DNA from: Escherichia coli
Lineage (GTDB): Bacteria > Pseudomonadota > Gammaproteobacteria > Enterobacterales > Enterobacteriaceae
Assembly (NCBI RefSeq): GCF_016903815.1
Contig: NZ_CP069973.1
Reading direction: 5' to 3' (one strand)
DNA length: 64,000 nucleotides
Shown here piece after piece: positions 1 through 12,434 of this stretch. The position numbers were made by a program, and so were the translations under genes. Position 1 is the stretch's first letter, and each line of letters starts with the position of its first letter. The notes beneath the pieces are model-generated. The model did no database searches. It saw only the letters and a list, made by a program, of their open reading frames with translations, and was not told the DNA's origin.

Positions 1-219
1 GCTGGCGGACACTGTACCGGCAAAATCAATGCCTGGCACCATTGGAAAGTGCCGGACGATAGGCCCGCGGCCCGTAATAGCCAGTGCGTCTTTGTAGTTG
101 ATAGATGAACAGTCGACATTGACCTCCACATCCCCCTGTGGCAGCTCGCTTTCAGCGATTTCAGCAATTTGGGCACTGTGGCGGTCATCCATCTTACTGA
201 TTAATAATGATTTAAACAT
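1..219 (-). CDS. Partial CDS (N-terminal part; continues beyond window start): YhdH/AcuI-like MDR-superfamily NADPH-dependent oxidoreductase
   Basis: Reverse-strand translation from ATG at 217-219 reads MFKSLLISKMDDRHSAQIAEIAESELPQGDVEVNVDCSSINYKDALAITGRGPIVRHFPMVPGIDFAGTV, which aligns with the N-terminus of E. coli YhdH/AcuI (SSLNYKDALAITGKG...PMIPGIDFAGTV). Not the K-12 yhdH locus, so probably island cargo. Confidence 0.6.
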   Translation of the reverse strand, partial: MFKSLLISKMDDRHSAQIAEIAESELPQGDVEVNVDCSSINYKDALAITGRGPIVRHFPMVPGIDFAGTVSAS

Positions 220-872
220 TTTTTTTCTCGTCTTTCTGGTTTGATGTCATTGAGCTATAAAGTAGTCAATAAACAATATTGACCGATCGTCTAATAATCA
301 ACGCTGATATCCCAGTGTTTGTCAGAAAACAAGAATTGCTTTTCTTTTCATCAGGTTAAATCTATCTTTTTTGATTTATATCAAACCAGATTCGGTCTTC
401 AATTATATAGGCATCAATGTTAGCGGTCCTACAAGATACGCAGTCGATGCTTCAGGGCGTACTGATGAAATAAAACAAGTAGGCTGAGATTAGTTGGTCT
501 GCTCATCGCTCACAGCGGACCTTCAGCTTCGTTAGCCAAGCGCTGACATAGTTACCGATGTAGCGTGTTAATCTGTCGGGAGCATAGCCGAAATCACTTA
601 ATCCATTAGACTTCACCTAAAACTGCAAAAATTACCGTCTTTGTCACACTCACCGAGTTTAATCAAACTAACACTGTACATAGTGCGAACAAGAGCCAAC
701 CAGAAAGACTGTTCAGCATCAACAGTGAAGTTTTTCCCCGCCACTTCCCCGCAATTCCTCCGCAGTTTTCCCACTAGAGAGTTCGACACATCCCTTGCAT
801 ACCAACGCTTTGATTCAAATCTCGGTAGTGCATCCAATTAGTAGAATATGTGTTTTTCGATAAATGCTCCGA

Positions 873-1232
873 TCACTTTTTCGTGGATCTCAACTGAGCG
901 TGAGAAGCAGATTGTTTACGAGCCAACCGCTTAATGTGGGTGCGTAGCGTCAGATTATTACGCTCAATGCGTTGGGTGAATATTTTGCCGGTCAGATGCT
1001 TATTCTTCGGCACCACCCGGCCATAGCTGTCCCAGTCATCGCTGGTGAGCATGCCGATGTTGAAGGGTGTAAGCAGTGCCAGTAGCTCCCGGCACGTTTG
1101 ATTGGTTCGGGGACCAAAAGTGTAGGCCAGTACACCGCCTGTTTTGGTGTTGTACGCGTACCAGAGCCAGTGTAGCCGGGCTTTACTGCCAACGTAGCTC
1201 CATTGCTCATCAAGCTCGCAGATAAGCGCCAC
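873..1232 (-). CDS. insB: IS1-family InsB-like transposase segment (probably expressed as InsAB' by -1 frameshift, or N-terminally truncated)
   Basis: 119 aa ORF ...CELDEQWSYVGSKARLHWLWYAYNTKTGGVLAYTFGPRT... matches the IS1 InsB catalytic region (compare [25 protein letters not shown]...). Confidence 0.7.
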   Translation of the reverse strand: MALICELDEQWSYVGSKARLHWLWYAYNTKTGGVLAYTFGPRTNQTCRELLALLTPFNIGMLTSDDWDSYGRVVPKNKHLTGKIFTQRIERNNLTLRTHIKRLARKQSASHAQLRSTKK

Positions 1233-1258
1233 ATCAGCATGGGCAACAGGCGAAGAAG

Positions 1259-1531
1259 TTATTTGCGTTGGCGCGAGTTTTTTAAAGTCCGGATGATGGT
1301 GTTAATACCAATTTTCAGTGTCCTGGCGGTATCGCGAACCCCGGCACCATTAAAGGCCATTTCAGTGATCATCTCTTTCATACCCGGCTTACGTGCTTGA
1401 TAAGTATAAGTGAGCTGAAACACACGGTGGCAGTCACGGCAGCGAAATCTGTCACGGCCTTTAGGGTTCTGACCATGGCGGTAAACCTGAGCTGACTGAC
1501 AACGGGGACAATGAATATTAACGCTGGCCAT
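1259..1531 (-). CDS. insA: IS1-family InsA-like protein (zinc-finger/HTH transposition regulator)
   Basis: 90 aa MASVNIHCPRCQSAQVYRHGQNPKGRDRFRCRDCHRVFQLTYTYQARKPG...; CxxC...CxxC pattern and colinearity with canonical IS1 InsA. Confidence 0.8.
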   Translation of the reverse strand: MASVNIHCPRCQSAQVYRHGQNPKGRDRFRCRDCHRVFQLTYTYQARKPGMKEMITEMAFNGAGVRDTARTLKIGINTIIRTLKNSRQRK

Positions 1532-1783
1532 GAGATAACCTCAAAAGCCCGTATTATACATCAGATTCAACCAATTAGAGGCATCACCCTTTCCTACATT
1601 CGTAGGACTTTGATTACATATAGCAAGGGTTAATTCTTATATACATAGAATAAATTAGGAATATAATGAATTTTATCGTGACGACCTTATTTATAATTAA
1701 TTTATATCGTCAGAGAAATTAGTGTCCACAACATGAAGCCTTACAAAGAGATTCTATGATTTAAAAAAAATAAGAGCCAGCTT

Positions 1784-3253
1784 ATGCATATCGATTCGAC
1801 TGAAAAAAATAATAAACAAAAGTTGGGCTTGCTTGCGCTAACATCCATTGTCGTGAGCTCGATGATCGGCAGCGGCGTTGACGGACTCCCCCAGAATATG
1901 GCGGAGAATTCTGCCGTGGGCCCGGTGGCGATAGCATGGATAGTCTGTGGTATCGGCATGTTTTTCATCTCCAGAACTTTTATCGTGCTGTCAAACATTA
2001 GACCTGATCTCCAGTCAGGAGTTTATATGTATGCCCGGGAAGGGTTCGGCCGATTTACGGCATTTAACGTCGCCTGGGGCTACTGGCTGATGACTATATT
2101 CAGCAACGTCGCCTTTGCCATTATGGTGATGGATACGCTGAATTATTTCTTACCAGGTGATTTCAAGGGAGGGAACAATATTCCTTCCGTTATCGGTGCC
2201 TCTTTGCTGATATGGGGATTCAACTTTTTAGTCCTCTCCGGTACCCGCATTGCCGGGTCGATTAACATCGTCGGCACGCTGGCCAAACTGATCCCGCTGG
2301 TGGCCTTTATTATTATTCTCATGCTGTTTATGAAGTACACCACGTTCGCAGATAACGTCTGGGGGCACAGCGCGAGTAAGGCCAGTCAGGACCTAGGCTC
2401 TATTTTCTCACAGGTAACTTCACCGCTTAGCGTGGCACTCTGGAGCTTCATCGGCGTTGAGGGGGCTGTCGCTCTTTCCGGTCGGGCCAAAAATAAACGC
2501 GACGTGGGTAAAGCCACATTCATTGGCTTCGTTGTATCACTGATTATCTGTCTGCTGGTCTCCATCCTGCCGTTTGGCGTGCTGACTCAACATGAGCTCA
2601 GCGCAATTCCAACCCCATCCACCGCCGGTATTCTGAAGATTGTTGTCGGTGAATGGGGGAAGATTATGATTATCTTGGGGGTGCTGATTTCGGTGCTTAC
2701 CAGCTGGCTGGCGTGGACCATCATCTGCGCCGAACTGCCTATGGTGGCCGCGCAGAACGGCACATTCCCGAAACCGTTCAGCAAAAAAAATGTGAAGGGT
2801 TCGGCCTCGGTTTCGCTTTATATAAGCAGTGCGTTTATGCAAATCGTCGTACTTCTGGTCTACTTTTCTAACGATGCCTGGCTTGCAATGCTGGCTATCT
2901 CTACCCTGACCGTTTTACCTGCGTATTTAATGACCACGGCATACCTGTTTAAACTATGTATTAGCGGCGAGTATGCCAGCTATACCACGAATCACAGCCG
3001 CAGCGCCGCGCTGGTCAGCAGTATTATCGGCTTTGTATTCTGCCTGTTTATGTTCTACGCCAGTGAAATCAAATATCTGGCGATGGTTCCGGTGCTGCTT
3101 ACGCTGGGCGTGCCCCTGTTTATCTGGGCAAGAAAAAAAGACGATCGCGCAGATAAAATATTTACGCTACGCGAACTGGCATTTTTTATTTTACTGCTGG
3201 TCCTCGACATCATTGTTTTTATTCTACTGCATTATAAAACGATACATTTTTAG
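1784..3253 (+). CDS. ArcD/YdgI-type basic amino acid/polyamine antiporter (APC superfamily, APA family), copy 1
   Basis: 489 aa; ATG at 1784 with AAGAG RBS; N-terminal KLGLLALTSIVVSSMIGSGV..LPQNMA motif and GVEGAVALSGRAKNKRDVGKAT motif typical of ArcD/YdgI arginine:ornithine-type exchangers; multiple hydrophobic helices. Confidence 0.85.
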   Translation: MHIDSTEKNNKQKLGLLALTSIVVSSMIGSGVDGLPQNMAENSAVGPVAIAWIVCGIGMFFISRTFIVLSNIRPDLQSGVYMYAREGFGRFTAFNVAWGYWLMTIFSNVAFAIMVMDTLNYFLPGDFKGGNNIPSVIGASLLIWGFNFLVLSGTRIAGSINIVGTLAKLIPLVAFIIILMLFMKYTTFADNVWGHSASKASQDLGSIFSQVTSPLSVALWSFIGVEGAVALSGRAKNKRDVGKATFIGFVVSLIICLLVSILPFGVLTQHELSAIPTPSTAGILKIVVGEWGKIMIILGVLISVLTSWLAWTIICAELPMVAAQNGTFPKPFSKKNVKGSASVSLYISSAFMQIVVLLVYFSNDAWLAMLAISTLTVLPAYLMTTAYLFKLCISGEYASYTTNHSRSAALVSSIIGFVFCLFMFYASEIKYLAMVPVLLTLGVPLFIWARKKDDRADKIFTLRELAFFILLLVLDIIVFILLHYKTIHF

Positions 3254-3357
3254 TCCAGATTAATTCACAGCAAGTTAAGGTGACGATAATGTCTGTTTCT
3301 TGGGCATGACATCCTCACAGTTAAATACTATCTGAACAGTAACAGTGGAGACACCTA

Positions 3358-5727
3358 ATGAAATTTAACCACAATCTTTTATTTATTTCCTCACAATATC
3401 TTGATGGCGACAACCCTTCGCAGCAGGTACTGGAAGAGCTTCAAACCGAACTCGCGGAACGCGGTTTTAAAATTCATATCACGCACCAGATCTCTGATGG
3501 ATTAAAAATCATCGAAAAAAGCCCCCAATACAGCGGGATTGGTTTTTACTGGGAGCCAGACAATCCGACCTTTGCAGAAGAGCTACAGCACTTTATCAGC
3601 ATATTCCGCAAAAGAAATGCCACGACGCCGCTGATAATTTTCTCAGAACAGAATATTACCGATCGTATCCCACTCGACGTCTTAAAAGAGGTCAGCGAAT
3701 ATGTTTATCTGTTCTCTGAATCCGCAGCCTTCACTGCCAATCGACTGTACTCCTTAGTCCACCGCTATGCGGATAAGCTTCTTCCTCCCTACTTTAAAAC
3801 CCTTAAGGACTTTACCGAGGACGGTGACTATTACTGGGACTGCCCGGGGCATATGGGGGGAATGGCCTATCTGAAACATCCTGTTGGCATTGAGTTCATT
3901 AACTTCTTTGGCGAAAACATGATGCGCGCTGATATTGGCGTGGCTACCGCGGAGATGGGGGATTATCTGATCCACGCCGGACCGCCTAAAAAATCGGAAG
4001 AAATTGCGGCCCGACTGTTTGGCTCTGATTGGACCTTCTACGGTGTTTCCGGCTCATCGGGGTCGAACCGTATTGTGGCCCAGGCTGCGGTTGGCGCAGA
4101 TGAAATTGCCATTATTGACCGAAATTGCCACAAGTCACTTAATCATGGCCTGACCTTGTCTCAGGCAAGGCCGGTTTACCTGAAACCTACCCGCAACGCG
4201 TGGGGGCTGATTGGGCCTATCCCGACCGGACGCCTGAAGAAGGCCAGTATTGATGCGCTGGTGGCAAACAGCCGACTGGCATCTGGTGCGGTCAGCCAGT
4301 CCCCGTCCTACGCCGTGGTAACCAACTGCACCTATGATGGCTTCTGTTATAACGTGAACGATGTAGTCAGACACCTGGGTGAAAGCGCACCGCGCATCCA
4401 TTTTGATGAAGCATGGTATGCCTATGCGCGTTTCCATCCGCTATACCAGAGTCGCTATGCAATGGACGCGGAGGAAACGCCAAATCGTCCAACCCTATTC
4501 GCCGTACAGTCCACCCATAAAATGCTGCCCTCACTCTCCATGGCCTCAATGATTCATGTGAAGAAAAGCGATCGCGCGCCGCTTAATTTCGATGACTTTA
4601 ACGATGCCTTTATGATGCACGGCACGACCTCACCCTACTACCCGATCATTGCATCAATTGATGTGGCAGTAAGCATGATGGAGGGTGAATCCGGTTATTC
4701 GCTTGTGCAGGAGTCAATTGAAGAAGCGATTGCCTTCCGTAAAGCCGTGGTCAGCGTCAAGCGCCAGCTCCAGGAGCAGGAAGGTGGTGACGCCTGGTTC
4801 TTCGATGTGCTTCAGCCAACCGAAGTGCAGGACAGCGATTCTGGGCAGCGATACAGTTTTGAAGAGGCACCCGTATCGCTGCTGAGCCACAGCGCCGACT
4901 GCTGGTCGCTGCGCTCCGGTGAGCGCTGGCACGGTTTTGCCGATGATGATCTGGTCGAAACCAACAGTATGCTCGATCCAGTAAAAGTGACCCTGACTTG
5001 TCCAGGGATCGGCCCGAAGGGAGAATACCAGAAAAACGGTATTCCGGGATATTTGCTGACCCGTTTTCTCGATGACCGTCGCATTGAAATTGCCCGTACT
5101 GGTGACTACACCGTGCTGATCCTGTTCTCCGTCGGCATCACCAAAGGCAAATGGGGAACTCTGATTGAAAGCCTGCTGGCCTTTAAAAAGCATTACGACA
5201 ATGACGATCTGGCCACAGATGCTATCCCGTCGCTGAAAGCGCATTCTCCACACTACGACACGCTAACCCTCAAGGAGCTATGTCAGATAATGCATGAAAA
5301 AATGGATGAGCTGGAGCTGATGTCGCATATCAACGACGCGGTAAACACCGATCCGGAACCAGTTATGACCCCGGCAGAAGCCTATCAGAAAGTCGTACGC
5401 TACAAAACCGAGCATATCCGGCTGGATGATTTTAGCGGCAGAATTGCCGCCAGCATGCTCGTCCCATATCCCCCAGGCATTCCTGTACTGATGCCGGGCG
5501 AACGGATGCCGCAAGGTAACAAGGGCATTATTGGCTATCTGCGCGCCCTGCAGGAATTCGATAAGCAATTCCCAGGTTTTGAACATGAGATCCAGGGCGT
5601 TAACGTCGATGAAGACGGGGACTTCTGGGTCAGAGCGATTGTGGAAGAAGAACGCGATGGGCAGTCGCTACCCGGCCACATAACCTTTAAACGCCAGGTC
5701 TCTGGTATTAAAAAGGGCCGCCAGTAG
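3358..5727 (+). CDS. PLP-dependent Orn/Lys/Arg decarboxylase, AdiA/CadA/SpeF family (fold-I, with N-terminal wing domain); substrate not assignable from sequence
   Basis: 789 aa; GGAGA RBS before ATG 3358; conserved blocks shared with E. coli AdiA (YWDCPGHMGG, SGSSGSNRIV, DRNCHKSLNHGL, VVTNCTYDGFCYN, HFDEAWYAYARF, STHKML with the PLP-binding Lys, ASIDVAVSMMEG, MLDPVKVTL, KGKWGTL, PYPPGIPVLMPGE, FPGFEHE). Longer than AdiA (755 aa) with a distinct C-terminal tail. Confidence 0.9.
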   Translation: MKFNHNLLFISSQYLDGDNPSQQVLEELQTELAERGFKIHITHQISDGLKIIEKSPQYSGIGFYWEPDNPTFAEELQHFISIFRKRNATTPLIIFSEQNITDRIPLDVLKEVSEYVYLFSESAAFTANRLYSLVHRYADKLLPPYFKTLKDFTEDGDYYWDCPGHMGGMAYLKHPVGIEFINFFGENMMRADIGVATAEMGDYLIHAGPPKKSEEIAARLFGSDWTFYGVSGSSGSNRIVAQAAVGADEIAIIDRNCHKSLNHGLTLSQARPVYLKPTRNAWGLIGPIPTGRLKKASIDALVANSRLASGAVSQSPSYAVVTNCTYDGFCYNVNDVVRHLGESAPRIHFDEAWYAYARFHPLYQSRYAMDAEETPNRPTLFAVQSTHKMLPSLSMASMIHVKKSDRAPLNFDDFNDAFMMHGTTSPYYPIIASIDVAVSMMEGESGYSLVQESIEEAIAFRKAVVSVKRQLQEQEGGDAWFFDVLQPTEVQDSDSGQRYSFEEAPVSLLSHSADCWSLRSGERWHGFADDDLVETNSMLDPVKVTLTCPGIGPKGEYQKNGIPGYLLTRFLDDRRIEIARTGDYTVLILFSVGITKGKWGTLIESLLAFKKHYDNDDLATDAIPSLKAHSPHYDTLTLKELCQIMHEKMDELELMSHINDAVNTDPEPVMTPAEAYQKVVRYKTEHIRLDDFSGRIAASMLVPYPPGIPVLMPGERMPQGNKGIIGYLRALQEFDKQFPGFEHEIQGVNVDEDGDFWVRAIVEEERDGQSLPGHITFKRQVSGIKKGRQ

Positions 5728-5745
5728 GCGGGGGAAAGAACAATA

Positions 5746-5771
5746 CCGTCGGATCGCCTGCAATCCGACGG
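5746..5771 (+). promoter_or_regulatory. Intercistronic stem-loop between the decarboxylase and the downstream antiporter (possible attenuator or mRNA processing/stability element)
   Basis: Inverted repeat CCGTCGGAT-cgcctgca-ATCCGACGG (9-bp stem) in the 74-bp spacer; no strong T-run follows. Confidence 0.4.
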
Positions 5772-5801
5772 CAATATTATAGAATAGCTGAGGGAAACGT
5801 T

Positions 5802-7301
5802 ATGGCAGAGCAATCTTCAGATGTAAAAAATAGTGACAATAGCGCCGGAGGACATAAGCTGGGGCTTATATCCCTCATCGCTATTGTCGTTAGCTCCATG
5901 CTGGGAGGCGGCGTTTTCAGTCTGCCGCAAAACACGGCGGCCTCTTCTGCACTAGGGCCAGTAATCATTGCATGGATTATTGCCGGGATCGGTATTTATT
6001 TTATCGCAAACTCCTTTCGCGTACTATCAGATCTGCGCCCGGACCTTCAGGCTGGAGTGTATATGTATGCCCAGGAAGGTTTTGGTTCCTTTATTGGCTT
6101 TAACGTCGCCTGGGGCTACTGGCTGATGACCGCATTTGGCAACGTTGCCTTTGCGGTAATTTTAATGGATGCTTTTAATCAGTTTATGCCGGGGGTTTTT
6201 ACGGATGGTAATAATCTGAACTCCATTATCTGCGGCTCAGTGCTGATCTGGGGCTATAATTTTCTTGTTCTGTCCGGGACGAAAGTGGCCGGATTTGTTA
6301 ACACCTTGGGAACCATCGCCAAGCTCGTCCCTCTGATCCTATTCGTATTACTGCTGGGTGTGCTGATCGATTATTCGGACCTGTTTAAAAACTTTTGGGG
6401 AGAATCACCCGCGATCCTCAGTGGCAACGGAAATGACGCCGCACCAGTATCGCTGCTGTCTCAGATTCTGGCACCGATGACCGTAACGCTCTGGGCCTTT
6501 ATTGGCGTCGAGGGAGCGGTTGTTCTATCCGGACGTGCCAAAAATAAACAGGACGTAGGGAAAGCCACACTGATCGGCTTTCTGCTGGCGCTAATTATTT
6601 ATATGTTAATGTCCATTCTGCCGTTCGGTGTAATGCCTCAGGCAGAACTAGCGCAGGTCAGTAACCCCTCTACCGCAGGCGTGCTCGCCCACGTTGTCGG
6701 TCAGTGGGGCGACTGGCTGATGAGCGCGGGGCTGATTATTTCTGTTCTGGCCGGCTGGCTTGCCTGGACCATGCTATGCGCTGAAATACCGATGGTAGCA
6801 GGACAGAAAGGCGCTTTCCCGCGCGCGTTTGCCCGAACGAACAGTAAACAGGCGGCCAATGTGTCACTGTGGGTTAGTAGCTTTGTGATGCAGGCGGCCA
6901 TGTTACTTGTTTATTTTTCAAATAATGCTTGGACCACCATGTATAATATCAGTGCGCTGATGGTTGTTCCGGCCTATATTACCACCACGCTGTATCTGAC
7001 CAGTATTTGCAGAAACGGAAAATATGATCAGTATGCAAAAAAAGGCCGCAGGCTGGCTTTGTCCAGCGGTGTTTTAGGCTCGCTATTCTGTCTGTTTATT
7101 CTTTACGCCAGCCAGATTGAGTATGTTGCATTAATTCCTATCCTGTTGACCTGTGGTCTGCCGGTCTTTATCTGGTCAAGAAAAGAAAAAAATGATGGTC
7201 AGCCGATATTTACCAAAAAAGAGCTGATTTATCTGATTATGCTGTTGCTGTGCGATATTATCGTCGTTGCCCTGTTTATTGGTGGATATTTAAAGGTATA
7301 A
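5802..7301 (+). CDS. ArcD/YdgI-type basic amino acid/polyamine antiporter (APA family), copy 2 (paralog of 1784..3253)
   Basis: 499 aa; GAGGGA RBS; same motifs as copy 1 (KLGLISLIAIVVSSMLGGGVFSLPQNTA, GVYMYAQEGFG, FNVAWGYWLMT, GVEGAVVLSGRAKNKQDVGKAT) with long collinear identity. Confidence 0.85.
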   Translation: MAEQSSDVKNSDNSAGGHKLGLISLIAIVVSSMLGGGVFSLPQNTAASSALGPVIIAWIIAGIGIYFIANSFRVLSDLRPDLQAGVYMYAQEGFGSFIGFNVAWGYWLMTAFGNVAFAVILMDAFNQFMPGVFTDGNNLNSIICGSVLIWGYNFLVLSGTKVAGFVNTLGTIAKLVPLILFVLLLGVLIDYSDLFKNFWGESPAILSGNGNDAAPVSLLSQILAPMTVTLWAFIGVEGAVVLSGRAKNKQDVGKATLIGFLLALIIYMLMSILPFGVMPQAELAQVSNPSTAGVLAHVVGQWGDWLMSAGLIISVLAGWLAWTMLCAEIPMVAGQKGAFPRAFARTNSKQAANVSLWVSSFVMQAAMLLVYFSNNAWTTMYNISALMVVPAYITTTLYLTSICRNGKYDQYAKKGRRLALSSGVLGSLFCLFILYASQIEYVALIPILLTCGLPVFIWSRKEKNDGQPIFTKKELIYLIMLLLCDIIVVALFIGGYLKV

Positions 7302-7443
7302 GTCCGAGTTAAATCTTTACTGGGCTAGTAATGCCGCCTTTTAAACAAGAAGGGCGGCAATCTTACTGAAATTAGTATGCTGCAAATCGGTAATGCTGCC
7401 AACTTACTGATTTAGTGTATGATGGTGATTTTAAGGTGCTTGC

Positions 7444-7719
7444 GTGGCTTCCATTTCCATCAGATGTCCTTCCTGCTCCGCTACTGAAGGCGTGGTGCGT
7501 AACGGCAAAAGCACTGCCGGACATCAGCGCTATCTCTGCTCTCACTGCCGTAAAACATGGCAACTGCAGTTCACTTACACCGCTTCTCAACCCGGTACGC
7601 ACCAGAAAATCATTGATATGGCCATGAATGGCGTTGGATGCCGGGCAACTGCCCGCATTATGGGCGTTGGCCTCAACACGATTTTACGTCACTTAAAAAA
7701 CTCAGGCCGCAGTCGGTAA
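7444..7719 (+). CDS. insA: IS1 InsA
   Basis: 91 aa [91 protein letters not shown]. Confidence 0.95.
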
Positions 7720-8141
7720 CCTCGCGCATACAGCCGGGCAGTGACGTCATCGTCTGCGCGGAAATGGGCGAACAGTGGGGCTATGTCGGGGCTAAATCGC
7801 GCCAGCGCTGGCTGTTTTACGCGTATGACAGGCTCCGGAAGACGGTTGTTGCGCACGTATTCGGTGAACGCACGATGGCGACGCTGGGGCGTCTTATGAG
7901 CCTGCTGTCACCCTTTGACGTGGTGATATGGATGACGGATGGCTGGCCGCTGTATGAATCCCGCCTGAAGGGAAAGCTGCACGTAATCAGCAAGCGATAT
8001 ACGCAGCGAATTGAGCGGCATAACCTGAATCTGAGGCAGCACCTGGCACGGCTGGGACGGAAGTCGCTGTCGTTCTCAAAATCGGTGGAGCTGCATGACA
8101 AAGTCATCGGGCATTATCTGAACATAAAACACTATCAATAA
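7638..8141 (+). CDS. insB: IS1 InsB (expressed as InsAB' fusion by frameshift)
   Basis: 167 aa ORF ...[40 protein letters not shown]...[10 protein letters not shown], canonical IS1 InsB. Confidence 0.95.
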
Positions 8142-8156
8142 GTTGGAGTCATTATC

Positions 8157-8949
8157 TAACCGTAGCGTTTATTACGCGCAGGTGACGCGTCCTGTTAATG
8201 TGCAAAGAATTGACTTACGAAGTCGGGTGAGGGCTTTCCATGCTCTCAGTCGTGGCGCAGCCGGTAGCCGTGCAATCAGTCAGATGTTGCGCCAGAGTAG
8301 CGTTGATGCAGGCCGGTGGCTGGCACGACGACTGATGCGGGAATGCGGGCTGACAAGTCGACAGATGGTTAAACATCACTACCGGGTCAACGAAGACAAA
8401 AGTCCGCCATTGCCAAATTTACTGAACCGGCAATTTCACCCCGCCGCACCAGACCGCGTCTGGTGCGGCGACATCAGTTTTATTCGCCTGCATGACAAAT
8501 GGTGTTAGCTCGCGCTCGTTGTTGATTTATATTCACGGCGGATTACCGGTTCAGCCCTCTCATTAACCGCTGATGCTGAGTTGGTGTGTAGGGCTTTGCG
8601 TAATGCACTGGAAACACGATCACGTGATGGCCGTCTGCTGTTTCATTCAGATCAAGGTGTTCAGTATAAAAGCAATAAATACAGAAAGTTACTCTGGCGT
8701 TATGGGGTAATGCAAAGTATGAGTTGCAGAGGGAATGGCCTGGATAATTCGCCGATGGAAAGAGTCTTTCGCAGCCTTAAAAATGAATGGCTTCCGAAAG
8801 GTGGTTATGGTGATTTTATCCATGCGGTACGTGATATAAACCAGTGGATTAATGGTTATTACAACGTTTATCGACCTCACACGAACAACGATGGTTTACC
8901 GCCTTGCTTACATGAAGAAAAGTGGAAACAGGTTATTCCGGTGTCCTGA
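8157..8949 (+). pseudogene. IS3-family transposase OrfB remnant: 5' part (OrfA and start of OrfB) removed by the IS1 insertion, plus an in-frame TAG at 8506-8508
   Basis: Single reading frame translates ...[49 protein letters not shown]...[11 protein letters not shown]...[13 protein letters not shown]...[15 protein letters not shown], collinear with IS3/IS2-type OrfB; the amber codon sits where family members have Tyr (WLYLAVV). 3' end of the element not precisely located (probably within ~40 bp after 8949). Confidence 0.8.
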
Positions 8950-9166
8950 TTTTGTGAACCACTACAATAATCCTTTTTCACAGACTTGTCAGCAGCCAGC
9001 ATTTATGTTCTTTTACCTGCGGGAATTTATCCGTCTGCCTGTCGGGACTACTCTGTCATACAGAAATCAGGTAGGAATAAATTGTAGTGGAAAGTCGATG
9101 TTTACCGGATGACTGATGCGCGCTTGTACACAGACAGTGTGTTTCAGTAATATGGAGAATAATGAA

Positions 9167-9667
9167 ATGAATAACACAGACACATTAGAAAAAATAATCA
9201 GACACCAAAAAAACAAAGACCCCGCATATCCCTTTCGGGAACATTTGTTGATGCAGCTCTGTATTCGCACAAATAAAAGAATGCAGGATAATATATCTGA
9301 ATTTCTGGGGGCGTATGGAATAAATCACTCAGCATATATGGTTCTCACCACATTATTCGCAGCGGAGAACCATTGTCTGTCACCTTCAGAGATAAGCCAG
9401 AAACTTCAGTTTACCAGAACTAATATTACCCGCATTACAGATTTTTTAGAAAAAGCCGGATATGTAAAAAGGACGGATAGCAGGGAGGATCGCCGTGCTA
9501 AAAAAATCAGTCTGACATCTGAAGGTATGTTTTTTATTCAGAGGCTCACTCTTGCACAAAGCATGTATCTGAAAGAAATCTGGGATTATCTGACTCATGA
9601 TGAACAGGAACTGTTTGAAGTCATTAATAAAAAATTACTGGCACATTTTTCTGATGCCAGCTCATAA
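9167..9667 (+). CDS. MarR-family transcriptional regulator, EmrR/MprA-like (possibly a PapX/SfaX-type 17-kDa regulator)
   Basis: ORF 9116..9667; likely start ATG 9167 after GGAGA. Sequence ...YPFREHLLMQLCIRTNKRM...GINHSAYMVLTTLFAAENHCLSPSEISQKLQFTRTNITRITDFLEKAGYVKRTDSREDRRAKKISLTSEG... aligns with EmrR (winged-helix region [28 protein letters not shown]). Surrounded by AT-rich DNA. Confidence 0.8.
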   Translation: MNNTDTLEKIIRHQKNKDPAYPFREHLLMQLCIRTNKRMQDNISEFLGAYGINHSAYMVLTTLFAAENHCLSPSEISQKLQFTRTNITRITDFLEKAGYVKRTDSREDRRAKKISLTSEGMFFIQRLTLAQSMYLKEIWDYLTHDEQELFEVINKKLLAHFSDASS

Positions 9668-10133
9668 AGTGCGAAATATCTGAGGATGCTGGATAGCTTC
9701 AGGCAAGAGAATAATGATTCTTGCAGATGTGTTTTTCCGGATACAAAAACAAAAGTAAAAAATTGCAGCGCCAGGCCACCTTTCAAAGCAGGGAGGCTTG
9801 TACCGCGTCGAAAATTTCAGCCAGTTAATGTAATTGTCTGAACCAGGCACTTCGCCCGGGCAGGAGAAGGAGCGTGGTTGCGGTCATCCTGTATACTGAA
9901 GTCGTTATGAAGGAATAATACAAATAATTGCCCGTTTTCTCTGTACGATAGAGGCAGGTGTGTATGATTGCATCACTATGTTTTTGTGATATAAAAAACT
10001 AAATGGTGAGATATGCATTTTAAAATATAACAAAAATCACCATGAAATAAGAATAATTATCCACGGAGAACATAAACTGCAGACTGTTACAATGCATGCT
10101 GTTCATCTTGACAATGTCGGTAATGACTCCAAC

Positions 10134-10637
10134 TTATTGATAGTGTTTTATGTTCAGATAATGCCCGATGACTTTGTCATGCAGCTCCACCGATTTTGAG
10201 AACGACAGCGACTTCCGTCCCAGCCGTGCCAGGTGCTGCCTCAGATTCAGGTTATGCCGCTCAATTCGCTGCGTATATCGCTTGCTGATTACGTGCAGCT
10301 TTCCCTTCAGGCGGGATTCATACAGCGGCCAGCCATCCGTCATCCATATCACCACGTCAAAGGGTGACAGCAGGCTCATAAGACGCCCCAGCGTCGCCAT
10401 CGTGCGTTCACCGAATACGTGCGCAACAACCGTCTTCCGGAGCCTGTCATACGCGTAAAACAGCCAGCGCTGGCGCGATTTAGCCCCGACATAGCCCCAC
10501 TGTTCGCCCATTTCCGCGCAGACGATGACGTCACTGCCCGGCTGTATGCGCGAGGTTACCGACTGCGGCCTGAGTTTTTTAAGTGACGTAAAATCGTGTT
10601 GAGGCCAACGCCCATAATGCGGGCAGTTGCCCGGCAT
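10134..10637 (-). CDS. insB: IS1 InsB
   Basis: 167 aa, identical in translation to the InsB at 7638..8141. Confidence 0.95.
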
Positions 10638-10831
10638 CCAACGCCATTCATGGCCATATCAATGATTTTCTGGTGCGTACCGGGTTGAGAAGCGGTGTAA
10701 GTGAACTGCAGTTGCCATGTTTTACGGCAGTGAGAGCAGAGATAGCGCTGATGTCCGGCAGTGCTTTTGCCGTTACGCACCACGCCTTCAGTAGCTGAAC
10801 AGGAGGGACAGCTGATAGAAACAGAAGCCAC
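10556..10831 (-). CDS. insA: IS1 InsA
   Basis: 91 aa [37 protein letters not shown]..., canonical InsA. Confidence 0.95.
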
Positions 10832-11360
10832 TGGAGCACCTCAAAAACACCATCATACACTAAATCAGTAAGTTGGCAGCATCACCCAATCTGCTGACAG
10901 ACGAAGATAATGAACCCGTTATGGTTTTTAACGGAGAGAGGAATGTACTGGCAGACAGTCTGAAACCACAGCCTCTGATTCTTCCGGTCAAGGGAAAATA
11001 AGCGTAATGTTCATCACCAGATTATGTACGATGAGTTTTCCACTGTTTATAGCAATTATCTTGCTAATAACCAGACAGGAGTAACCAGACCAACCGAAAA
11101 CACCGGGAAGGTGATTACCCGCTGGCAGAGGAAATCCGGTTTTTTTTGATGTCAGCCATAACGTGTTTGACAATAAAGCATCATGAAAGGGTGTTAATGA
11201 GTCCATGGGATAATTCATAAAAATAATTTACTGTGTTATCCTTTTCAAAAGAAATATTCAGAAGATAACCCCTGGCTGACAACCAGGGGAAGGGGGCATT
11301 AACAGTGTTATTATTGGTGAATAAATTATTACTTGTGTGCAGGATACACTAATGCAATAT

Positions 11361-12434
11361 CTACTGATACTGTATGCCAGTATGTTTCATGCCTGCCGCT
11401 GAAAACGGCAATATCCAGGGCCAGACATATTCACCATTCATATTTCTGCATTTCTGTACAATTTTCTCAGAAAGCGTCTCATCAATTCTTTCACGCAACT
11501 TCTCCTGCTGTCTTAAAATACTTTCGCATATTTCGAAATCATCTTCCTGCATCAGCATTTCGGCGCATTTAATGATTTCTGCCCGTTCATGCAGCACAGA
11601 GGAATGATTATAGAGCCAGTTTACAAACAGCAATGCTTCCGGATATTGCCCCCATAACGGGTGGTATGTGGCATAATAATCTTCGGCAGTATCCGGACCG
11701 CCTGAAAAGTTATGCCATACAGCAAGTGGAAATGGATGCAGATTTCCGCACAGTATTTCTGCGATGTAAGTATTTGCCGCAAAGCCGCGACGAAATGCAG
11801 TTGCAGCTTTTACCAGTTCCCCATTAAGAAAATGCAGAAGGCCGAGTTCATACCAGTAAGGTGAAAATTCATCTGCATGTTCCTGCAGTATATGGCGTGC
11901 CTGTTCATGAGCGCCAGTGCGTAACAGTTCCGGTCCCAGTAGCCAGCGTGCACCATGATTATCTTCGGGATTGTAATCCAGTATTTTTTCAATGAGCATG
12001 ATGGCATCCTGATGACGCCGTAAATGTGCATTTGCCAGGATTGCCGCATAGAGGGCACGAAGAAAAGGTCGGTTGTCAGGATGTATCCAGATGATTCTGC
12101 CACTGAAACCTTCAGGGATAAGACGATTGCCAACTGCCAGCCCTTTAAGGGCAGCATTCAGCGCCTTACGCGGGGCATTCTGCTCCAGAAATACGTATGC
12201 CAAGTGAGCGTGTACATCAATAAAGTCATTCTCCTGTCGGGCAAGGCGCCTGAGTTTGTTGATGTAACTTGTTTCGCTGATTTCATCCGCATCGTATGCA
12301 TCAATCAGTTCTTCAAACTCATCCAGCAACGAGCCAAACCAGGTTTCCGGAAATATGAAACAGCCCTGGTTATCGTTCACTTCAAAGCGTAATTTGCCAG
12401 TCATATTCTGAACCTGTAAAAAAGGATGGACCAT
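11361..12434 (-). CDS. Hypothetical protein (island cargo next to integrase); helical-repeat (TPR-like) character, function unknown
   Basis: 357-aa ORF (possible internal start at MTGKL...); no family recognised from memory; lies immediately downstream of the integrase region inside the pheU island. Confidence 0.55.
   Translation of the reverse strand: MVHPFLQVQNMTGKLRFEVNDNQGCFIFPETWFGSLLDEFEELIDAYDADEISETSYINKLRRLARQENDFIDVHAHLAYVFLEQNAPRKALNAALKGLAVGNRLIPEGFSGRIIWIHPDNRPFLRALYAAILANAHLRRHQDAIMLIEKILDYNPEDNHGARWLLGPELLRTGAHEQARHILQEHADEFSPYWYELGLLHFLNGELVKAATAFRRGFAANTYIAEILCGNLHPFPLAVWHNFSGGPDTAEDYYATYHPLWGQYPEALLFVNWLYNHSSVLHERAEIIKCAEMLMQEDDFEICESILRQQEKLRERIDETLSEKIVQKCRNMNGEYVWPWILPFSAAGMKHTGIQYQ

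Follow-up and report, generated by a model that had tools for sequence, protein, structure and literature searches.

A stem-loop without a U-tract between the decarboxylase and second antiporter genes of an Escherichia coli operon

In E. coli operons, intergenic 3' structures such as the one between malE and malF protect the upstream segment of the operon message, and they are conserved between species (PMC5927463). The malE-malF structure and other conserved ones set the stoichiometry of operon products through differential decay of the transcript (PMC5927463). Stable stem-loops that are not followed by a U-rich stretch have also been described at the 3' ends of Rho-dependent E. coli transcripts, which they mark and protect; it was proposed that they do so by blocking PNPase and RNase II (PMC6061677).

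We analysed a hairpin located between the decarboxylase gene and the second antiporter gene of an accessory three-gene operon. Like the protective intercistronic stem-loops of the malE-malF kind (PMC5927463), it is stable, devoid of a U-tract, placed just 3' of an operon gene, and its structure is kept in orthologous operons. The expected effect would also be shared with the malE-malF REP-type stabiliser, namely greater stability of the upstream than of the downstream segment. However, the hairpin is not a REP copy, being single-copy and of unrelated sequence. Moreover, the protective structures of PMC5927463 lie mostly inside the downstream open reading frame, whereas the E. coli spacer hairpin is intergenic. 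With the stem-loops of Rho-dependent 3' ends (PMC6061677) it has in common its stability and its lack of U residues, but those hairpins mark transcript ends, whereas this one lies within the operon, with a translated, co-directional gene starting 30 nt further on; for Rho to load immediately beyond it, antiporter 2 would have to be poorly translated. Finally, it resembles an intrinsic terminator by its GC-rich hairpin shortly past a stop codon, and differs from it by its position inside the operon and by the absence of a U-tract on the sense strand; only the antisense strand looks like a terminator.

The three-gene module and its spacer

The window, that is, the whole stretch of 64,000 nucleotides that was analysed, contains the module on its + strand. 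It consists of antiporter 1 (1784..3253), a basic amino acid/polyamine antiporter of 489 aa (TIGR00905), an Orn/Lys/Arg-family decarboxylase of 789 aa (3358..5727), and antiporter 2, of 499 aa (5802..7301). The two antiporters are paralogues, 55% identical, and both fall in the ArcD-like TIGR00905 subfamily. With the NCBIfam model for arginine decarboxylase, the decarboxylase reaches 740 bits, short of the cut-off of 1167, and it is a member of an uncharacterised clade of approximately 790-aa proteins, with relatives in Proteus, Providencia, Hafnia, Bordetella, Victivallis, Acidobacteria and methanogens. A literature search on the operon or on the accession of its protein found nothing specific to them.

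The module lies inside a tRNA-Phe island of E. coli, between two IS1-family copies, one on the - strand (~873-1591), which is frameshifted and has a divergent inverted repeat, and one on the + strand (from 7390). The module interval, 1589-7387, fits exactly between these two elements. A metagenome contig, L179, is 92% identical to the window over precisely this interval and unrelated to it outside. Because the identity covers exactly the segment between the IS1-family copies, it suggests that the three genes move as a unit. In strain 7/2, the upstream part of the island (L001, 7777-9285) encodes a group II intron reverse transcriptase/maturase, and the island also contains IbrB-like and PAPS reductase genes, a PerC-family regulator and many IS fragments.

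Among 5,426 complete E. coli genomes, the module was found in about 495-507 (~9%), and it is 100% identical in many of them. Two spacer haplotypes were observed, the main one in 489 records and a minor one, of the TO6 type, in 18. The minor haplotype corresponds to G5771A, in the terminal pair of the stem (18/508 records), and is the sole stem polymorphism seen in E. coli; the pair is broken on the sense strand, while the antisense strand acquires a G·U. In strain TO6 (L082), antiporter 1 (558-2026) is annotated as frameshifted.

The decarboxylase reading frame stops with TAG at 5725-5727 and antiporter 2 starts with ATG at 5802, leaving a spacer of 74 nt (5728..5801), annotated in the same way in RefSeq E. 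coli genomes. From 5' to 3', the sequence leading up to the ATG reads ...aacaata, the 5' arm CCGTCGGAT (5746-5754), the 8-nt loop CGCCTGCA (5755-5762), the 3' arm ATCCGACGG (5763-5771), and caatattatagaatagctgagggaaacgtt, followed by the ATG. The arms were located both by reading the sequence and by pattern search, and the resulting + strand stem-loop (5746..5771) was recovered by folding and by pair probabilities as well. Its stem is made of 9 perfect base pairs, of which 6 are G-C. The preliminary description had reported such a stem between the decarboxylase and the second antiporter, and both the arms and the ends of the reading frames were verified. Folding a 41-nt segment gave -15.3 kcal/mol (z = -3.96), and none of 200 shuffled sequences did as well. 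The hairpin is thus thermodynamically significant. Its first base is 18 nt past the stop codon, out of reach of the terminating ribosome.

How exceptional such a stem is depends on the reference chosen. The hairpin pattern is expected 0.01 times per window from shuffles, and up to 3 mismatches could be tolerated in the search and still only one match was obtained in the window. Perfect stems of at least 9 bp with loops of 3-12 nt were matched 27 times in the 64-kb window, with overlaps (~14 distinct sites), versus 2.3 in shuffles. Such hairpins are therefore enriched in real DNA, and one of them landing in a given 74-nt spacer is roughly a 0.3-2% event.

Folded alone, the 74-nt spacer has a minimum free energy structure that does not contain the stem. 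This is a truncation artefact: the free 5' GCGGG then pairs into the loop. When upstream context from 5700 or earlier was included, the nine pairs had a mean probability of 0.82-0.99. In this context a small 5-bp hairpin, CCGCC/GGCGG, found by folding and by the scan, forms across the decarboxylase stop codon (5718..5731, + strand) and prevents GCGGG from competing for the main loop. It is probably incidental. An Rfam scan of positions 1-12000 at a permissive E-value returned no relevant family; the sole match was Xoo8, on the minus strand, which scored 15.5 bits (E = 0.77) where the gathering score is 90.

The stem is followed by a tail, CAAUAUUAUA, in which 3 of the first 8 nt are U, where at least 5 U in the 8 nt directly after the stem were taken as the criterion for an intrinsic terminator, and the consensus scan called no + strand terminator at the spacer hairpin. 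The absence of a clear U-tract, as first described, is thus established, and a canonical intrinsic terminator was rejected, the GC-rich stem-loop being present and the U-tract missing. Instead, the hairpin gives way to an A/U-rich single-stranded stretch, CAAUAUUAUAGAAUAGCU (5772..5789). It carries AU|AUU at 5774-5778, which fits the RNase E motif RN|WUU as given in PMC5927463. Read by eye, R-N-A-U-U is kept at this position in L179, in TO6, and in four other loci (L002, L005, L087 and L090). This short motif is a candidate site for RNase E cleavage or entry.

The Shine-Dalgarno sequence of antiporter 2, GAGGG (5790..5794), is 7 nt before the ATG, and the end of the hairpin is 30 nt from this ATG, leaving the ribosome-binding site free. 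The scan found no promoter-like site in the spacer. TATTAT (5775-5780) was considered as a -10 element and rejected, as no usable -35 accompanies it and TO6 and L179 do not keep it (TATTAC). Given the lack of a promoter-like site, the good Shine-Dalgarno sequence and an ATG only 30 nt away, the genes appear to be co-transcribed. A further + strand hairpin without a U-tract, TGCCGCCTT...AAGGGCGGCA (7332..7359), is located 30 nt past antiporter 2 and is of the same type as those of Rho-dependent 3' ends (PMC6061677). Hairpins found after antiporter 2 in several enterobacterial relatives lack a U-tract too, and the contrast that had been sought between operon-end hairpins with U-tracts and a spacer hairpin with none failed for this reason.

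Hairpins at the same position in related operons

Homologues of the decarboxylase having the antiporter-decarboxylase-antiporter gene order were taken from other species and from metagenomes. The comparison set comprised the 22 loci in which the spacer between the decarboxylase and antiporter 2 was at least 40 nt long, spanning Enterobacterales, Alcaligenaceae, Victivallis and Commensalibacter. A hairpin was considered significant when the best local hairpin was matched by at most 2 of 200 shuffles. By this measure, 18 of the 22 spacers contain one, and in 14 none of the 200 shuffles was as good. In the spacer between antiporter 1 and the decarboxylase of the same loci, used as a control, this last level was reached in only 1 case out of 17.

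The four spacers below significance are those of L007, L056, L085 and L215. Longer nested hairpins are present in L007 and L056, and were missed by the loop-limited finder. The 56-nt spacer of L215 (Salmonella diarizonae) has no hairpin, nor have three shorter spacers, of 11-30 nt (L011, L014 and L016). The element is therefore dispensable.

The stems of related loci have no sequence in common. For instance, the arms read GTCCGGCA/TGCCGGAC in Citrobacter, TGCCGCCCGG/CCGGGCGGCA in Bordetella, GCCCCGCC/GGCGGGGC in Victivallis, TATCTGGCACT/AGTGCCAGATA in Proteus and GTCCAGTAC/GTACTGGAC in L090. None of the 18 orthologous hairpins is followed by a U-tract. The full set of spacers could not be aligned with MAFFT, no sequence being conserved across the relatives, and when MAFFT and RNAalifold were applied to nine spacers, the E. 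coli stem was misaligned to the 3' arms of other loci and no consensus emerged. One subgroup, made of L002, L005, L087 and L090, could be aligned. In this subgroup, 3 of the 8 stem pairs show compensatory double changes and 100% of the cells of the alignment are paired, versus only 16-38% when the registers were slid by 1-3 columns. The L179 spacer departs from that of E. coli at 10 of the 56 positions outside the stem and at none of the 18 within it, a difference of marginal significance (Fisher one-sided p = 0.05). One of its changes, A5745G, lengthens the stem to 10 bp. L179 also gains a U·G pair that exists on the sense strand only.

A scan of metagenomes for both arms, with loops of 3-12 nt, yielded over 120 unrelated hairpins that differed in loop and flanks, and L179 as the only true homologue. 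By a rough estimate, this number of matches is about the chance level for a collection of this size. In three contigs unrelated to the E. coli spacer (L110, at 2683-3027, L113 and L156), two to three palindromes with the same 9-mer arms and loops of 3 or 6 nt were found ~90-240 bp apart, with conserved flanks; these resemble a family of repeats from another organism.

The hairpin ends 27-32 nt from the ATG of antiporter 2 in most enterobacterial relatives and 58-60 nt from it in Providencia-type loci, and in Bordetella and Victivallis it lies 4-9 nt past the stop codon.

G·U pairs are strand-specific, and folding was compared on the two strands. The sense fold is better by at least 5 kcal/mol in eight loci (L003, L006, L010, L084, L089, L093, L216 and L217), for instance -14.5 versus -2.4 kcal/mol in L093 and -16.6 versus -2.9 in L217, and the antisense fold is better to this extent in two, L009 and the E. 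coli window. Over 20 spacers, 23 G·U pairs were counted on the sense strand against 13 on the antisense strand. Together, the G·U counts and the fold bias indicate that the signal at the level of the family is a structure of the sense-strand RNA. E. coli itself departs from this most clearly: the antisense version has 13 bp and reaches -22.2 kcal/mol (z = -5.6), versus -15.3 on the sense strand. Selection maintains a hairpin between the decarboxylase and antiporter 2 in orthologous operons, in most of them as a structure of the sense strand.

Possible roles of the hairpin

The best explanation, which we hold with moderate confidence, is that the sense-strand hairpin stabilises the antiporter 1-decarboxylase message relative to antiporter 2 by acting as a barrier to exonucleases. 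The hairpin would form in the polycistronic antiporter 1-decarboxylase-antiporter 2 mRNA, and its stem would oppose the 3'-5' exonucleases PNPase and RNase II. Once the transcript had been cut in the A/U-rich stretch just 3' of the hairpin or within antiporter 2, or terminated by Rho further downstream, these enzymes would trim it back as far as the stem and halt there. A stable antiporter 1-decarboxylase mRNA would remain while the antiporter 2 segment decayed, and decarboxylase would be made in excess over antiporter 2.

The preliminary description had left the choice between an intra-operon attenuator and an mRNA-stability element. The stability element is favoured, because a position kept despite sequence turnover, compensatory changes, the lack of a U-tract and a fold borne mostly by the sense strand are the hallmark of the protective stem-loops found between cistrons in E. 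coli (PMC5927463, PMC6061677). For the attenuator there was no support: besides the missing U-tract, no credible antiterminator was found, alternative pairing being seen only in an RNA cut at 5728, and neither a sequence kept across relatives for ligand or protein binding nor an Rfam family was detected. As for the proposal that the element sets the decarboxylase-to-antiporter ratio, it agrees with the data as far as sequence goes, and such an effect may be expected if the barrier operates.

Rather than stopping exonucleases, the hairpin could stop some of the polymerases, as a leaky, non-canonical intrinsic terminator or pause hairpin that lowers transcription of antiporter 2, and the terminated 3' end would be protected as well. 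The outcome would be the same as with an exonuclease barrier, it would agree with the conservation data, and the GC-rich 9-bp stem is found right past a stop codon, with tails that are partly U/C-rich in some relatives (for example UUGUCUCCUC and CGUUUCCUUC in Bordetella). Since hairpins lacking a U-tract are also found after antiporter 2, partial termination at such hairpins is possible, and may even be the usual transcript end of these loci. However, the E. coli tail, CAAUAUUA, has no U at its proximal positions and 3 in 8 overall, no orthologous hairpin out of 18 has a U-tract, and the + strand scan made no call, which together render this reading rather unlikely.

A role directed at the downstream cistron appears more doubtful still. 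The hairpin would then be a 5'-terminal stem-loop guarding the antiporter 2 mRNA from RNase E, of the papBA/ompA type, or an insulator of the ribosome-binding site. Protective 5' structures are documented in E. coli operons (PMC5927463), an unstructured A/U-rich leader does come after the hairpin, and in most enterobacterial relatives the ATG follows at a nearly constant distance (27-32 nt). This constancy can be accounted for by shared ancestry of the tail and Shine-Dalgarno segment, though, and in Providencia-type loci, Bordetella and Victivallis the position of the hairpin tracks the end of the upstream gene as much as the start of the downstream one.

It is improbable that the hairpin goes beyond a passive decay barrier and is a conserved, structure-specific control point of the two-antiporter decarboxylase system. 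It might in that case be the site of a chaperone binding 3' hairpins, or of an RNase, that adjusts the dose of antiporter 2 to conditions. Alternatively, it might be a bidirectional element, which in E. coli would in addition halt antisense transcripts arriving from the IS1 next to it.

That the hairpin has no function at all, being a chance palindrome, a REP-like repeat or the decaying relic of an old terminator, is equally hard to credit. Hairpins of similar size are fairly common in the window (~14 sites), identical 9-mer arms turn up by chance in numerous unrelated contigs from metagenomes, and four related loci are without the hairpin. Against this, the hairpin recurs in 18 of 22 loci with differing sequences and compensatory changes, versus 1 of 17 for the control spacer, and the spacer does not belong to a repeat family: among the 507 E. 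coli genomes with a match, the number of copies has a median of 1 and a highest value of 2, nearly all carriers having a single one, and there is no Rfam match. A REP/BIME element was rejected on this low copy number, despite the extragenic, imperfectly palindromic nature of the sequence.

On the minus strand, the spacer hairpin (5773-5744) forms a 13-bp stem with the tail UUGUUCUUUC (TTGTTCTTTC), and is the top terminator-like match of the scan. A second, small terminator-like hairpin, CCGCCTACTGGCGG (5731-5718), with the tail CCCUUUUUAA (CCCTTTTTAA), follows it. These minus-strand sites are arranged in tandem, yet they do not mark the end of any minus-strand gene. The element could be imagined as an antisense terminator in E. 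coli, keeping transcripts that cross antiporter 2, such as those from the nearby IS1 end, out of the decarboxylase gene. The pairing of the TO6 variant survives on the minus strand only, and a weak promoter-like site (7402-7374) reads leftward from the IS1 end. But there is no minus-strand gene in this place, the promoter-like site is at chance level (9 found versus 8.2 expected), the hairpins of relatives are mostly sense-specific, and L179 has gained a U·G pair on the sense strand only, so that an antisense role seems the least probable of those considered. An RNase III site was ruled out, a 9-bp stem being too short for this enzyme, and an integron attC site was rejected from the sequence, no integron context being seen.

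Significance for the operon

An exonuclease barrier at this place would involve no new principle, as protective intercistronic stem-loops are already well documented. What is added here is that the hairpin is, to judge by the comparison of related loci, an evolutionarily maintained and sequence-free structural feature of a widespread, uncharacterised operon. It offers a natural example of an RNA structure held at one position through full sequence turnover, from Enterobacterales to Burkholderiales and Victivallales. In practice, it can help with annotation and guide the design of constructs for expressing or dissecting an operon present in ~9% of complete E. coli genomes. If the exonuclease barrier is the true explanation, the hairpin would fix the proportion in which an acid-stress-type decarboxylase and one of its two antiporters are made, and no dedicated regulator would be involved.
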